DNA of 64,000 nucleotides from an uncultured Bacilli bacterium (GTDB lineage: Bacteria > Bacillota_I > Bacilli_A > RF39 > UBA660): NCBI GenBank assembly GCA_947626275.1, contig CANQRL010000007.1:2983-66982 (forward strand). The letters are read 5' to 3'. Each line of letters begins with the position of its first letter. Positions within the stretch are counted from its first letter, which is position 1. Below, in pieces: positions 54,528 through 60,463 of the stretch. The notes below the pieces were generated by a model. That model saw nothing but the letters and a program-made list of their open reading frames with translations, made no database searches and was not told the DNA's origin. Made by a program: the position numbers and the translations under genes.

Positions 54528-55592
54528 TTATTCCTGTAAATAAAGACGAATCGTTTCTCCATCCGCGATTTTGGTACCCGCTTTTGGGGACTGATAAGAA
54601 ACATTCCCTTTTCCCTCATATTCTACTTTAAAGTTTTTAAGTGCTTTCATCGCTTCTTTTAACGTCATCCCCGTTGTATCGGGAACCGCACTATAAGTCT
54701 TATCTAGATAGACAAACTCTTTTTCTATCTCTCCTTCTTGTTGTTTTATTTTTAAAATAGGAATGGCGGATTGTAGGAAGTTACGAGCGATAGGAGCCGC
54801 AACGGTTCCTCCATATTGACTTACTCCTTTCGCATTATCTACTGCTACATAGACAACAATTTTAGGATCATTCGCAGGCATAAAACCGATAAAAGAAGTA
54901 ATGTAGTTTCCTTGTAAATAACTACCATTGACTGCTTTTTGAGCAGTACCCGTCTTTCCCCCTACTCGATAACCGGCTAAATAAGCGTTATGCCCGGTTC
55001 CTCTTGCGACAACACTTTCTAAAGCATATCTTACTTTCTCACTCGTATCCTCACTAATCACTTTTCGAACAATCGTCTCTTCATGAGCTTCAATGACTTG
55101 ATTGGTCTCTGGGTCATTTAAACTTTGGACGATATAAGGCTTATATAGAATACCTCCATTGATAGCCGCACTGACAGCAGTTACTTGCTGAATGGCTGTA
55201 ACAGATACTCCTTGCCCAAAAGCCGTCGTAGCGGTTTCCAAATCACCAATCGCATCGACATCAAAAAGAATTCCACTCGACTCTCCCGATAATTCAATTC
55301 CAGTCTTTTTTCCAAAACCAAATTTATCGATATAGGAAAATAATTTTTCTTTTCCTAACCGTAAACCAAGATTAACAAACCCCGTATTACAAGAATTTTC
55401 AACGACTTCCAAATAGGTTTCAAAGCCATGTCCCCCATGTTTCCAACAGTGGATTTTCGCCCCTTCCACAGTAATAACACCAGTATCCGTATGGGTATCA
55501 TTTTCTAAATCTACGACTTTCTCTTCTAAAGAAGCTGCTAATGTAATAATCTTGAACGTACCTACCATTTTGGCACATAAAAGGATAAGCAC
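54528..55592 (-). CDS. spoVD: C-terminal half of a split class B PBP (SpoVD/FtsI-like): transpeptidase SxN/KTG boxes + PASTA-like end
   Basis: Begins '…GTFKIITLAASLEEKVV' (the sequence expected immediately after the S*xxK box), contains 'SCNTGF' (SxN) and 'GGKTGTAQ' (KTG); ends with a PASTA-like 'GKGNVSYQSPKAGTKIADGETIRLYL'. Confidence 0.7.
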   Translation of the reverse strand: MLILLCAKMVGTFKIITLAASLEEKVVDLENDTHTDTGVITVEGAKIHCWKHGGHGFETYLEVVENSCNTGFVNLGLRLGKEKLFSYIDKFGFGKKTGIELSGESSGILFDVDAIGDLETATTAFGQGVSVTAIQQVTAVSAAINGGILYKPYIVQSLNDPETNQVIEAHEETIVRKVISEDTSEKVRYALESVVARGTGHNAYLAGYRVGGKTGTAQKAVNGSYLQGNYITSFIGFMPANDPKIVVYVAVDNAKGVSQYGGTVAAPIARNFLQSAIPILKIKQQEGEIEKEFVYLDKTYSAVPDTTGMTLKEAMKALKNFKVEYEGKGNVSYQSPKAGTKIADGETIRLYLQE

Positions 55593-55595
55593 TAT

Positions 55596-56384
55596 CTACT
55601 TATCCTCTAATTCAAAATCCAACATTTCCTTTGCAACACTTTCATATAAATCTTGCTCATGTTTAATAGTATCTATTAAGAACATTTTATCTTCCTTATA
55701 ATTCTTTAATCCTCTCATATAATATGGTTTATCATCATCAAGAACAATAAATGGCATTATATTGTTCTTTAAACATTCCTTAAACATGATTATTCTTCCT
55801 ATCCGACCGTTGCCATCTCCAAATGGATGAATGCATTCAAATCGAAAATGGAAATCAATAATATCTTCTAACGTAATTTTATTTAAATCCTGATACCACT
55901 TAAGCAATTCATCTAAATCATTTTCTACATCCTCTGGAGCAGATGTATTTATAACATTGATAAGTCCAATTTTATTAGGTACAATCTTGAAACCACCAAC
56001 ATTATATCTTGGATTTTCTTCATCAGTTGTATTTCTTTTTAAAATCTTATTCATTTCAATCATCATATCTTTTGATAACGGCTCATCTATCGTATCAAGA
56101 CAATAATCAAATAGTCTAAAATGATTTTTCATTTCCGTTAAATCATCAAACTTAATTGCATCATCACTTTTAGGAATGAATGAATTTGTTTCAAATATCT
56201 CTTCTGTTTCATCTTCTGTTAATTTTCCACCCTCAATCTTGTTTGAGTTATAAGCAAAATTAACTTGCGAATAGTGGTAGATATTTCCTTTAAACTTTGA
56301 TTTTCTTTGTTCGATTAGTTCTAATTTTAACTTATTAAAATCCACATAATCATCTCCATTCAACATTTCAAGTTTCAAGTACAT
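55596..56384 (-). CDS. Fic-family protein (AMPylase-type fold)
   Basis: 262 aa; Fic motif 'HPFGDGNGRIGR'. Confidence 0.7.
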   Translation of the reverse strand: MYLKLEMLNGDDYVDFNKLKLELIEQRKSKFKGNIYHYSQVNFAYNSNKIEGGKLTEDETEEIFETNSFIPKSDDAIKFDDLTEMKNHFRLFDYCLDTIDEPLSKDMMIEMNKILKRNTTDEENPRYNVGGFKIVPNKIGLINVINTSAPEDVENDLDELLKWYQDLNKITLEDIIDFHFRFECIHPFGDGNGRIGRIIMFKECLKNNIMPFIVLDDDKPYYMRGLKNYKEDKMFLIDTIKHEQDLYESVAKEMLDFELEDK

Positions 56385-56444
56385 ATTTATTTTACCATAA
56401 AAGCATAGAAAATTATAAGTAAACTAGCATGTATTTCTTATAAA

Positions 56445-57422
56445 TTAGTTATGTATTCCACTATTCTTAGTTACATACACATTCTTTCCCTTATTCAATA
56501 TAACTTCCTTTTTAGCATTGCTCATTTTCTTTACCATATCTAAAGGTGGGTGTTTTGGTATATATTCATTCTGCATTTCTTTGATTAATGATTGAACAAT
56601 AGTGCTAATTTCTGATTCACTTTTATTAGATATTTCTACACCTAATCTTCTTTTAAACTCTGGTTCCTTCATTAATCCATTAATAAGAGTAGAATTAAAT
56701 TCTGTAAGTGCATCATGCATTTCTTTCCAACTTTCATCAGTATATTTAATGATGCATAAAGCAGAAGTTAATTTAGACCTTTCATTACTGTCTATTGAAA
56801 TATCACTGTCATCTATATTTATAGATGTTTTTGTCGCATTTACAAATGTGACAGCAAAAATATCAGAACCTAGTCTGTTATCAAAAGAAGCATTTGATAC
56901 GTATTGATAGGTTTCATTTTTATAATATATATTTAAGATATATAGAGCCCCAAGTGCTGATATTAGATTTTCAATATTCCCATCTTTTAGATTATTGCGT
57001 CTATCATGCTTTACAGCTTGATAAGCTTTGTTCCACTTTGAACTACTACTTCCACGTTTATTGGCTTTATGTAATGGTTTTATAATCTTATTATTTGCAT
57101 TAGTGAAATTAAATCTTGCACAAGAAACAATGATTTCTCGTTCGCAAATATTCCATTGAGAGTTTAGATAATTTATGCAATCAGTATCAAAATATAAATC
57201 TCTCTTTTTTCCATTATCATCATATACATCAGACCCACCATTTACTTTATATAATTCTTTTGATAGTGATTCAATTTCAACAACAATTCGCAAAATTAAA
57301 TCAGCAATATACATTGAATATACTTTCATTTGACTATCATCAAAATTTATATACTTTGTTAATTGCAAGGTTTCTTCTTCAAGATTTTTATAAACAGGCC
57401 AGTAACTATTGAAATTCTCCAT
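56445..57422 (-). CDS. Hypothetical protein (element cargo)
   Basis: 325 aa, no recognised motif; composition shifted (N/I/K/S-rich) relative to neighbouring core genes. Confidence 0.5.
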   Translation of the reverse strand: MENFNSYWPVYKNLEEETLQLTKYINFDDSQMKVYSMYIADLILRIVVEIESLSKELYKVNGGSDVYDDNGKKRDLYFDTDCINYLNSQWNICEREIIVSCARFNFTNANNKIIKPLHKANKRGSSSSKWNKAYQAVKHDRRNNLKDGNIENLISALGALYILNIYYKNETYQYVSNASFDNRLGSDIFAVTFVNATKTSINIDDSDISIDSNERSKLTSALCIIKYTDESWKEMHDALTEFNSTLINGLMKEPEFKRRLGVEISNKSESEISTIVQSLIKEMQNEYIPKHPPLDMVKKMSNAKKEVILNKGKNVYVTKNSGIHN

Positions 57423-59229: not shown

Positions 59230-59263
59230 AATCTTCCACCGACTTTGCTACAATATGTTTTAT

Positions 59264-59407
59264 TTATGTTACTTGTAATGTTTTAATCCTTTTAAGTAAT
59301 TTTTCATTTGCTTTTGTAAATGTATTCTCATCAATAACATTTCTTTTATATAAGTTATTGTTAATGATAATTTGTAGTTGTAATTCCGTTATAGTATTTA
59401 TTTTCAT
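59264..59407 (-). CDS. Small ORF (47 aa) upstream of the recombinase; candidate directionality factor/regulator
   Basis: 'MKINTITELQLQIIINNNLYKRNVIDENTFTKANEKLLKRIKTLQVT'; RBS GAAAGG 9 nt upstream of ATG; below the ORF-track length cutoff. Confidence 0.3.
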   Translation of the reverse strand: MKINTITELQLQIIINNNLYKRNVIDENTFTKANEKLLKRIKTLQVT

Positions 59408-59563
59408 TTGATTCATCCTTTCTTTCATTCAACGTCACTTAATCGTATGTTCTAAACCATTAGAATATGATATCCTGATTACTTTTTAACTTTCTTTGTT
59501 TGATGATGACAAAAAAGAAAAGATATATTTTCGTTGAAGTTTATCACATATAATGATTGGTCA

Positions 59564-60463
59564 CTATATGGTGTCTACGTTCTTAAAAGTAGATCCTGGT
59601 TCATAGGTCATCCAAATAGGAAGATTCCGATTGATTTCTTCCGTTGTATAATCCTGATAGTTAGTCGGTGAGAAATTGGGCCGAGAAGCAATAGCTAGAA
59701 TCGCTCCACTATTCGGATCCATCGCAAGACCAAAAGCTTGATCAGCCTGATACATCGACATGGCATTATCTAGTTCACGCTCTAAGGCCTCTTGTAATTC
59801 AAAGTCAATCGTGAGAGTCATATTGATTCCATCTTGTGGTTTTTCATAGACTTGACTGAGCTTTAGACGATTTCCTTTCGCATCCGAAAAATACTTAATC
59901 GCTCCATAACTTCCCGTCAGGTATTGGTCATAGATGAGTTCTAGTCCACTTAACCCTTGATTATCAATTCCAACAAAACCTAAGGTATGAGATAAATACG
60001 TATCATAAGGGTATTCTCTCTTTGCTTCTTTGACTAGATACACGCCTGGTAATTTTAAATTTGAAATTTTATCCGCAATCTCATTCGATAGTCTTCTTCC
60101 CTCTGGATGGACTCTTTCAATCGAAGTCTTTTTAGAAACATGGGAAAGCATATCTTCATAAGAAACGCCAAGAATCTCCGCTAAAGAGGAAGCTGTCGAC
60201 TCCTTATCGACAATTTGATTGGGGATTAAGACAAGCGAAGTGGTTGTTATATTACCCGCTAAAACGACCCCATCCCGGTCATAAATGATTCCTCGATTGG
60301 CTTCTAAGGGAAGATTTCTACTCCATAGACTGGTCGCATAGTGATGAAGTTTATCATAACTGATAACTTGAATATAAAAGACTTTTCCAATGATGACGAA
60401 AAAAAGGACAATGAGAATGACTAATACCAATTTCATTCGAGCATTCATTTTCTTTAAAAACAT
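59564..60463 (-). CDS. spoVD: N-terminal half of the split class B PBP (SpoVD/FtsI-like): TM, dimerisation domain, ends at the catalytic S*TFK
   Basis: '…SLWSRNLPLEANRGIIYDRDGVVLA…LSHTLGFVGIDNQGLSGLE…NRNLPIWMTYEPGSTFK' then 5 element-derived codons (NVDTI) and a stop. Confidence 0.7.
   Translation of the reverse strand: MFLKKMNARMKLVLVILIVLFFVIIGKVFYIQVISYDKLHHYATSLWSRNLPLEANRGIIYDRDGVVLAGNITTTSLVLIPNQIVDKESTASSLAEILGVSYEDMLSHVSKKTSIERVHPEGRRLSNEIADKISNLKLPGVYLVKEAKREYPYDTYLSHTLGFVGIDNQGLSGLELIYDQYLTGSYGAIKYFSDAKGNRLKLSQVYEKPQDGINMTLTIDFELQEALERELDNAMSMYQADQAFGLAMDPNSGAILAIASRPNFSPTNYQDYTTEEINRNLPIWMTYEPGSTFKNVDTI

Follow-up and report, generated by a model that had tools for sequence, protein, structure and literature searches.

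In a stretch of 64,000 nucleotides (nt) from an uncultured Bacilli bacterium (GTDB lineage Bacillota_I; Bacilli_A; RF39; UBA660; GenBank assembly GCA_947626275.1, contig CANQRL010000007.1, positions 2,983 to 66,982), hereafter called the window, we found a gene for a class B penicillin-binding protein (PBP) of the SpoVD type which is interrupted at its catalytic lysine codon by an element of about 4 kb encoding a large serine recombinase (LSR). The best explanation, to which we assign a probability of roughly 0.6, is that this is a small non-phage intervening element similar to skin and gin, which would be excised from the spoVD-type gene in the mother cell. This reading is preferred because the insertion can be undone to restore the gene, the LSR is intact and has a conserved miniature partner, a sigmaE-type motif precedes them, the element is co-oriented with its host gene, the PBP gene has a promoter-like box of its own, and the gene pieces have remained open. 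The positions of all these features are listed in table 1.

Table 1. Features of the interrupted PBP gene, the element and the adjacent region (window coordinates)
Feature	Position	Strand	Description
PBP 5' half	59582..60463	minus	Codons 1-294, the last being the Lys of STFK
PBP 3' half	54528..55550	minus	Codons 295-634 and stop; SCN, KTG, PASTA
Intervening element	55552..59582	minus	4,031 bp +/- the duplicated AA; GC content 0.28
attL	59555..59610	minus	...GGATCTACTTTT-AA-GAACGTAGACACCATATAGTGACC; likely crossover AA 59583-59584
attR	55525..55580	minus	...GCCAAAATGGTAGGTACGTTC-AA-GATTATTACATTAGC (also written ...CCAAAATGGTAGGTACGTTC-AA-GATTATTACA); likely crossover AA 55552-55553
SigmaE-type promoter-like motif	59442..59470	minus	TCATATT-N14-CATACGAT, just upstream of the small ORF
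47-aa ORF	59264..59407	minus	MKINTITELQLQIIINNNLYKRNVIDENTFTKANEKLLKRIKTLQVT; candidate recombination directionality factor
LSR, 576 aa	57499..59229	minus	Resolvase, Recombinase and Zn_ribbon_recom (Pfam)
325-aa cargo protein	56445..57422	minus	Function unassigned
Fic/DOC cargo protein	55596..56384	minus	Pfam Fic; candidate anti-phage defence gene
SigmaE/K-type -10-like box of the PBP gene	60479..60486	minus	CATACAAT, 16 nt upstream of the PBP start
Downstream block	50863..54468	minus	CNNM/CBS protein, small ORF, mraY, ftsW/spoVE (SEDS)

A SpoVD-Type Gene Split at Its Catalytic Motif

A previous sequence-only reading of this DNA had taken two minus-strand open reading frames (ORFs), 59564-60463 and 54528-55592, for the halves of one class B PBP, the first of which ends at the catalytic EPGSTFK, and had predicted that deleting the DNA between them would leave an intact protein of ~640 amino acids (aa) with SxxK, SxN, KTG and PASTA. 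Joining positions 60463..59582 and 55550..54528 in silico indeed gave a single uninterrupted frame of 634 codons that encodes a class B PBP. The split lies at the SxxK codon, and in the rejoined protein the motifs STFK, SCN and KTG occupy residues 291-294, 347-349 and 493-495, within a domain arrangement (Pfam) of PBP_dimer, Transpeptidase and a C-terminal PASTA domain. The upstream ORF reads ...IWMTYEPGSTFK (ending in YEPGSTFK) and then runs into foreign sequence; as annotated, it extends to 59564 by five element-encoded codons (NVDTI) and a stop. The downstream ORF includes ...TFKIITLAASLEE, and the 3' half has neither a functional in-frame start codon nor a ribosome-binding site (RBS) of its own. 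The GC content is 0.28 in the insert versus 0.39 in the PBP halves.

SpoVD had been proposed as the closest family. The rejoined protein scores 697.3 bits on the TIGR02214 (spoVD_pbp) equivalog model, above the cutoff of 688 by a margin of 9 bits, and the next best family models fall far under their own cutoffs. Based on this score and on its position in the division and cell-wall (dcw) cluster, the split gene is of the SpoVD type, and its predicted role is in cortex synthesis.

Uninterrupted orthologs of 633-635 aa are plentiful, with identities of up to 86-87% at 100% coverage. In data containing one genome per species, all of them came from metagenome-assembled genomes labelled uncultured Bacilli, Tenericutes or Mollicutes, one of which is a circular genome of 1.26 Mb. 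Examples among the related loci (numbered with the prefix L) are L005-L007, whose PBP gene is intact at 85-86% identity to that of the window. Two other interrupted genes, in L088 and L089, also rejoin in frame, to 635 and 634 aa. None of 24 N-terminal halves (0/24) contains a stop codon, and all full-length C-terminal halves examined are open as well.

It could be argued that the split is an assembly chimera, or that the two halves are naturally independent genes, as the sequence-only reading had itself considered. The assembly is probably metagenomic and of modest coverage, that of related contigs being ~5-6x. On the other hand, at least two assemblies made independently for the window's species (L001, ERZ27249252; L158, ERZ27249467) show the same junctions, and homologous junctions occur in dozens of relatives. 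Because identical junctions recur in independent assemblies of the same species, they do not represent an assembly artefact. In addition, the reading frame continues perfectly from one half to the other at the catalytic motif, the last codons of the annotated 5' ORF come from the element, and uninterrupted orthologs are the rule in relatives. Both explanations are thus extremely improbable.

Element Boundaries and Recombination Sites

The element had previously been placed at about 55554-59581, with imperfect inverted repeats at its ends beside a short CTT(R)AA core. The location was correct, and the exact extent is now 55552-59582; the crossover is likely the central AA instead of the proposed core. 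The reconstructed attP, GGTAGGTACGTTC-AA-GAACGTAGACACC, is quasi-palindromic, and perfect 7-bp inverted repeats flank its AA (TACGTTC-AA-GAACGTA). The rebuilt attB carries ...ACTTTTAAGATTATTACA..., and the rebuilt attP carries ...GGTAGGTACGTTCAAGAACGTAGACACC....

Comparison with relatives showed that the element-side end of attL, GAACGTnnnnACCATATAGTGACC, is kept. In the attR of relatives the base following AA tracks the host allele (AAA or AAG as the Lys codon), and in attL it is always the G of the element. This pattern suggests that the crossover is the AA that forms the first two bases of the catalytic Lys codon. Short sites with inverted half-sites around a 2-bp crossover, as found here, are typical of LSR att sites.

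Genes of the Element

All genes of the element have the same orientation as the PBP gene, and their order is promoter-like motif, small ORF, LSR, 325-aa protein and Fic. The previously proposed content (a SpoIVCA-like LSR, a small upstream ORF, a Fic protein and an unknown protein) was recovered in full when domain searches were made.

The LSR matches the integrase family phrog_95 of PHROGs. Its catalytic motif R28-V29-S30-T31 (RVST, with Ser30) is invariant across the family, and the ratio of nonsynonymous to synonymous divergence (dN/dS) is 0.18. The gene is located 130-350 nt from attL, a layout that is the same in relatives. Its best NCBIfam matches, the SCCmec Ccr recombinases and XisF, are below cutoff (CcrB, 98.5 vs 900; CcrC, 91.7 vs 900; XisF, 69.1 vs 375).

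The start of the small ORF is most likely its third ATG (59407), as in every homolog, preceded by the RBS GAAAGGA. In relatives the small ORF is always found directly upstream of the LSR gene, and its dN/dS is 0.17. Homologous mini-ORFs also precede a 38%-identical LSR (in L095) and a 46%-identical LSR on the viral contig L142. The 47-aa protein has no family match in Pfam, NCBIfam, PADLOC or PHROGs; recombination directionality factors (RDFs) share no common sequence signature. Considering its position, conservation, dN/dS and co-occurrence with the LSR, this protein is a candidate for the cognate RDF.

Two cargo genes follow. The 325-aa protein has no match in Pfam, NCBIfam, PADLOC or PHROGs, and a single-sequence AlphaFold2 model of it (pLDDT 33.5) was unusable. 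The Fic protein matches the PADLOC model PDC-S04 over nearly its full length (E = 3.7e-97, 322 bits). Homologs of this protein with 78-84% identity are encoded by free-standing genes beside intact PBP genes (L010:5190-5942, L019:4616-5365 and L056:9536-9932, the L056 copy being a pseudogene), and no att remnants were found beside these three genes. As the flanks of these genes are not att-like, Fic appears to be an accessory gene that occurs independently in this lineage and was captured by the element.

No phage structural, lysis or replication genes are present in the element, where the integrase and Fic are the only PHROGs matches, and an Rfam search returned only three tRNAs, none of which is inside the element. 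Members of the LSR family above 46% identity were not found on viral contigs (nearest, 34-46%), nor above 37% in GenBank phages. With no phage genes and such distant viral relatives of its recombinase, the element does not resemble a prophage or a phage derivative.

Promoter-Like Motifs

The motif just upstream of the small ORF has the consensus TCATAWT-N14-CATAMGAT followed by TAAG, and this sequence precedes the small ORF in the window, L085, L086-88 and L090-92. Across three lineages of the element the spacers are unrelated in sequence and the spacing is constant. All nine exact matches (9/9) in both strands of 1.6 Mb of related DNA are located upstream of the small ORF. In the window, the motif is the sole match even when one mismatch is allowed, which is weak evidence when taken by itself, since 15 of 100 shuffled sequences contain at least one match. 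The B. subtilis sigmaE consensus, ZHATAXX-14-CATACAHT, agrees with this motif. The motif also matches by consensus what has been published for sigmaE, with ATA in the -35 element and CATA in the -10 element, the latter being the sigmaE/sigmaK -10 signature (PMC3789822). At the sequence level, therefore, the operon of the LSR and its candidate RDF is preceded by a promoter-like sequence of the mother-cell type.

The PBP gene has a -10-like box immediately after the hairpin (60493-60514) that terminates the upstream GNAT gene. A CATAnnnT box 21-29 nt before the PBP start was detected in 76 of 98 unique orthologous upstream regions, compared with 5.9 (maximum 14) in composition-matched shuffles. 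Within this box, CATA and the T at position 8 are invariant and do not correspond to a sigmaA hexamer. At the same distance, the box is found in only ~3% of 586 other genes in related loci. Genes with this box in some relatives include mraY, ftsW/spoVE, S11 D-Ala-D-Ala carboxypeptidases, BclA-like collagen-repeat (GPT)n proteins and SpoVD-like genes, a set (from L005-L084) that may be the signature of a mother-cell regulon.

A weak sigma70 alternative, TTCAAA-18-TACAAT, is also present upstream of the PBP gene; a scan for sigma70-type promoters performed at chance level (40 matches vs 35 expected) and was discarded. The minus-strand GNAT hairpin, GGAACGTTC-AAAA-GAACGTTTC, resembles the attP palindrome ACGTTC-AA-GAACGT. 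We considered it as an att-related sequence and rejected it as probably a coincidence, as its centre has 4 nt and the hairpins of relatives are unrelated.

The sequence-only reading had further suggested that the spoVD promoter could read into the element toward the recombinase gene. This is consistent with the co-orientation of the two, and no terminator was found in the window between the PBP 5' half and the operon of the small ORF and LSR.

The type of promoter also bears on a different explanation, in which the element would be a reversible or stochastic vegetative switch akin to active lysogeny: those cells of a population in which the element was excised would gain an extra transpeptidase (e.g., for the cell wall or for beta-lactam tolerance) without any sporulation. 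In favor of this explanation, the element interrupts the gene of a penicillin-binding protein, one species has both occupied and empty alleles (see below), and growth-phase-dependent, heterogeneous excision is known for yin (PMC10747680). However, the promoter motif is of the mother-cell and not the sigmaA type, with the sigma70 scan at chance; the gene is SpoVD-type by model score and position; and the element contains no replication or maintenance genes, so that an excised circle would be lost and the switch could operate only one way. We therefore regard a vegetative switch as quite improbable.

Gene Neighborhood and Host

A dcw-like block with mraY and ftsW/spoVE had been described around the split gene. 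We confirmed this block, in which the order CNNM, small ORF, mraY and ftsW/spoVE is alike after intact and split PBP genes, and extended it upstream: in the window's species, mraZ, rsmH, ftsL and an intact gene for a 729-aa class B PBP are followed by a gene for a protein with LysM and Hydrolase_2 (SleB/CwlJ family) domains. The 729-aa protein is PBP2X-like and reaches only 370 bits on the SpoVD model (355-370 overall for the other class B PBP of this cluster), and its intact gene is located just past the end of the window. No second class B PBP was detected among the ORFs of the 64-kb window. The nearest intact relative has the same pair of FtsL and PBP2X-like protein. In B. subtilis the order is ftsL-pbpB-spoVD, and the split gene occupies the place of spoVD. 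On this evidence the split gene is the second class B PBP of the dcw cluster, the division PBP being untouched.

The host lineage is one of uncultured gut Bacilli with reduced genomes; source names for the LSR family include Firmicutes bacterium CAG:884 and Candidatus Coprovivens (Bacilli incertae sedis). The orders RF39, RFN20 and ML615J-28 have been predicted to contain a mixture of sporulating and non-sporulating species, and ongoing loss of sporulation genes including spoVD has been reported in RF39 (Field, Bowerman, Hugenholtz; PMC10868615). Further hints of sporulation are the SigK/E-like sigma factor of an element-bearing genome, whose scores are given below, the SleB/CwlJ-family gene of the dcw cluster, and the CATAnnnT boxes before spoVE-like, dacB-like and BclA-like genes.

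Distribution of the Element Family

The LSR is 74-91% identical to more than 120 protein clusters, nearly all of which have a length of exactly 576 aa. All LSR homologs with 58-91% identity and enough flanking sequence are inserted at the same SxxK codon, and all are from uncultured gut Bacilli; this sample comprised 8 loci from four clusters and 24 metagenome loci down to 58% identity. The layout is constant, consisting of the PBP 5' half, small ORF, LSR, variable cargo and PBP 3' part. The cargo of L085 includes two unknown proteins on the left side, and that of L086-L092 includes desulfoferrodoxin, SDR, flavin reductase-rubredoxin and an ArsC-like protein.

One locus, L100:6334-12725, is an apparent exception. 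Here the module of small ORF and LSR has the opposite orientation to that of attL and the PBP 5' half, with attL still recognisable. This locus also carries a D5_N/DUF5906 primase-helicase module and is possibly a fuller, replicative ancestor of the mini-elements.

Further Elements in the Same Gene

The 3' part of the PBP gene ends early in about half of the loci that carry the element. We considered decay as the cause of the short C-terminal fragments in L086, L087 and L090-92 and rejected it, as they result from further specific insertions. In L095:13966-20149, the PBP gene is divided into three: the first piece stops at the SxxK codon, the second stops at ...ENSCN| and the third begins with |PGFV.... 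The second element thus lies right after the SxN motif (codon ~350), with AATC at both junctions, and it encodes a GNAT protein, a radical-SAM/SPASM enzyme, an unknown protein and its own 527-aa LSR (38% identical) together with a homologous mini-ORF. The three pieces differ by one base in 900 from the L088 allele, which is uninterrupted at this second site. Breaks at the second site were found in 11 loci (L095; also L114, L090, L091, L094, L097-L099, L102, L103 and L116 noted).

A third site follows codon ~415 (...PIQ|) in L086:13397, L087:13443, L092:13408 and L081:2761. The foreign end is common to these four loci from different hosts (CCTTACTGTCTAATAAATGATACC…TAGAGGAA…ATACTAAAAAGTATGATGT); no recombinase was found within 6 kb of sequence, and the far junction was not found. 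In L081:1-2900, a short contig, an intact PBP gene is followed by a gene for a 164-aa lipoprotein, an attR-like junction (CCAAAAGGTAGGTAC|TTTTTAAATAATTACA) and then decayed PBP residues 292-416 with stops. Possible readings are a locus that has been repaired, an element that carries a complete PBP copy, and a chimeric assembly.

We tentatively propose, as a broader possibility on which we would put rather less than even odds, that the spoVD-type gene serves as a hub where up to three LSR elements insert at or beside catalytic codons (SxxK, SxN and ~415), each with its own recombinase and homologous mini-RDF, and that the mother cell excises them all. Sporulation would then involve the assembly of this gene from up to three pieces. 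By exploiting the division of sporulating cells into germline and soma, the elements would have a cost-free harbour while they spread horizontally with cargo for defence and oxidative stress. If so, it would be the Firmicute counterpart of the multiply interrupted heterocyst genes, and the reported loss of spoVD in RF39-like genomes would in part be an annotation artefact of split genes.

Mobility and Evidence for a Possible Plain Insertion

Several observations weigh against programmed excision in the mother cell. The first group concerns mobility. Between the window and L085, the PBP halves have a synonymous divergence (dS) of 1.6-1.9, compared with 0.32 in the LSR and 0.38 in the small ORF, indicating that the element is much younger than the split of its hosts. 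Identical LSRs are found with PBP pieces differing by 13% (L086 vs L088). The correlation between LSR and PBP distances is weak (Mantel r 0.40, Spearman 0.18), and pure vertical descent of the LSR with the PBP was rejected on these values. Together, the low dS of the LSR, the identical LSRs on divergent PBP genes and the weak correlation point to horizontal spread within the lineage, and the element behaves as a mobile rather than a fixed one. In the well-sampled species of L088, the SxxK site is mostly occupied but polymorphic: a 281-aa 3' fragment was found on 435 contigs and intact 635-aa alleles on a few contigs of 30-66 kb. In the window's species, of which only about four contigs are known, there was no intact PBP allele with at least 90% identity. 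We also considered the dN/dS of the split halves (0.06-0.08, like that of intact genes) as a test of function and discarded it; because the element is so much more recent than the divergence of its hosts, this ratio says little about function after the insertion.

The second group concerns individual loci, promoters and host. In L089:8571-9001, the copy of the element has lost the -10 box of its promoter, and its LSR has 571 aa with an altered start. In L095:19327, one G-to-T nonsense change is present in the third PBP piece, which may be an error or a fresh pseudogene at 5.5x coverage. The promoter assignments are consensus matches, and no -35 element could be assigned to the PBP gene in the orthologous upstream regions, where upstream terminators overlap the place in which it would be expected. 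In a distant LSR clade (~66% identity) the strict motif is absent and attL is only 55-75 nt from the small ORF; the LSR operon of this clade is likely driven by read-through from the PBP promoter. As for the host, its sporulation is a prediction. The 64-kb window contains no unambiguous sporulation gene, and a 244-aa sigma factor in an element-bearing genome scores under the curated cutoffs (best SigK, 162 bits vs 252; SigE, 148 vs 339). Finally, neither attP nor a rejoined junction of the window's species was found, although the attP search, which covered 158 related loci and viral contigs, was uninformative rather than negative.

Many of these points could be accommodated if the element were an ordinary integrative element that uses the conserved SxxK sequence as a reliable attB. 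Knockout of the spoVD-type gene would be tolerated in a host-adapted lineage with reduced genomes whose sporulation is dispensable or being lost, and excision would serve only for transfer. In addition to the young age of the LSR and its identical copies on divergent genes, the patchy occurrence among close relatives (L005-L007 are intact), the polymorphic occupancy, and the signs of decay in L089 and L095, this explanation would account for the further elements after codons ~350 and ~415, as a dead gene would allow, and it fits both the reported loss of sporulation genes in RF39 and the fuller relative L100 with its primase-helicase module. However, it leaves unexplained the sigmaE-type motif before the operon of the small ORF and LSR, as well as the constant co-orientation and the position of this operon at the edge beside the PBP 5' half. 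The pieces of a dead gene should decay, yet the N-terminal halves and the full-length C-terminal halves are open, and the pieces in L095 are one base in 900 away from an allele that is uninterrupted in its C-terminal part. Moreover, the second element is not random debris, because it is a bounded LSR element with the same type of small-ORF partner. We consider a plain insertion less likely than excision in the mother cell, to which it is the strongest rival. If it were correct, the locus would document the active erosion of sporulation by mobile elements toward a Mollicutes-like state.

Horizontal mobility itself is compatible with a skin-type element, because SPbeta and relatives of skin are also mobile or patchy.

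Proposed Mechanism and Significance

Assuming programmed excision, we propose the following model. The element would remain integrated, and the spoVD-type gene silent, both in vegetative cells and in the forespore, where this gene would be dispensable because the separate, FtsL-linked division PBP is intact. After asymmetric division, a mother-cell sigma factor would transcribe the genes for the 47-aa protein and the LSR from their own promoter, by read-through from the spoVD promoter, or both. The small protein would act as an RDF, allowing the LSR to join attL and attR, and the element would leave as a non-replicating circle. The rejoined gene could then supply a spore-cortex transpeptidase that partners with the neighboring SEDS protein. 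The spore would retain the interrupted copy, so that the element and its cargo would be inherited at no cost to sporulation. Between species, the element family would move horizontally through LSR-mediated integration into the conserved attB. We infer excision during sporulation from these sequence features taken together.

If this model is correct, spoVD, the gene for a cortex transpeptidase, would join the handful of sporulation genes that are rebuilt during development, and this would be the first case in uncultured gut lineages similar to RF39 and RFN20, whose predicted sporulation would bear on their transmission between hosts. The element would offer a concrete handle on sporulation and excision in organisms which have not yet been grown. 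Its LSR family, with defined att sites of 40-50 bp and a candidate 47-aa RDF, may also provide parts for genome engineering. In addition, split spoVD genes may be mis-scored as gene loss in comparative genomics.

Other Features of the Window

A mobile-element remnant is located at 787-6084 and contains genes for a DnaB-family helicase (787-1995, minus strand), a 227-aa ORF and a tyrosine integrase (4655-5965, plus strand), the last of which directly adjoins a tRNA gene (6004-6084, minus strand). The region 6169-15976 appears to encode a series of large proteins, either secreted or membrane-bound, that have no family matches. A putative SGSME signal-peptidase-I motif is present in two ORFs (8602-9360 and 12897-13574), and small proteins with predicted TasA/camelysin-like signal peptides are encoded at 12155-12829.

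Comparison with Known Systems

Reported targets of programmed excision are sigK, spsM, spoVFB, spoVR, gerE and yabG, to which a genome survey added cotJC and spoIIID. The closest parallel is gin in gerE of Bacillus cereus ATCC 10987, in which the LSR GirC works with the 42-aa RDF GirX (PMC5595907). Both gin and the element described here are small, are not prophages, and interrupt a gene with a mother-cell role in sporulation (a predicted role for the spoVD-type gene); both encode an LSR of ~58 kDa and a partner of 42-47 aa without known motifs, have a short recombination core, and allow the gene to be reconstituted (here in silico). They differ in the target (spoVD-type instead of gerE), the recombinase subfamily, the Fic/PDC-S04 cargo and the host, which is uncultured and has a reduced genome, the present element being known from its sequence. 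Also in contrast to gin, the small ORF here immediately precedes the LSR gene and itself follows a sigmaE-like motif.

The skin elements of sigK provide a second parallel, with SpoIVCA in B. subtilis and CD1231 and CD1234 in C. difficile (PMC5025042; survey in bioRxiv 10.1101/2022.02.25.481979). They may be as small as 2.6 kb with as few as 2 genes, their cargo is variable with only the recombinase in common, and they are patchy among strains. Control in the mother cell is exerted via sigmaE, on the LSR in B. subtilis or on the RDF in C. difficile, where the small RDF CD1234 is controlled by sigmaE/SpoIIID and limits excision to the mother cell (PMC5025042). Unlike sigK, the target here is the gene of a cortex enzyme and not of a sigma factor, so that its excision would not gate a regulatory cascade. 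Other differences are that the LSR is at most 37% identical to any GenBank phage integrase and that one gene has up to three insertion sites.

LSR elements also interrupt other genes expressed in the terminally differentiated mother cell, as the element described here probably does: SPbeta in spsM (SprA/SprB), vfbin in spoVFB, vrin in spoVR, yin in yabG, and skin-like elements in cotJC and spoIIID. Most of these are prophages or their remnants, whereas the present element is without phage genes and its family is not found on viral contigs above 46% identity. The heterocyst elements of Anabaena/Nostoc (in nifD, fdxN with the LSR XisF, and hupL) are excised in development, as is proposed here, from genes that only a terminal cell type requires, with several elements per gene or operon, comparable to the three sites here. 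They belong to a different phylum and developmental programme, and the LSR reaches only 69 bits on the XisF model versus a cutoff of 375.

For spoVD itself, the sequence-only reading was not aware of any characterized intervening element. We found none in the literature that was searched by full text, which did not extend to subscription-only papers, and a survey of regulated gene integrity does not mention spoVD. A mobile element within spoVD has been described for ICEBs1, which inserted at a secondary site in B. subtilis in the laboratory after deletion of its primary attB (PMC3715440). That case differs in having a tyrosine integrase, another site and no excision (<1e-4), and its induction lowered host viability (PMC3715440). 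Compared with all these systems, the locus described here would represent a new target gene, spoVD, in a new host clade, with several element families sharing one gene.

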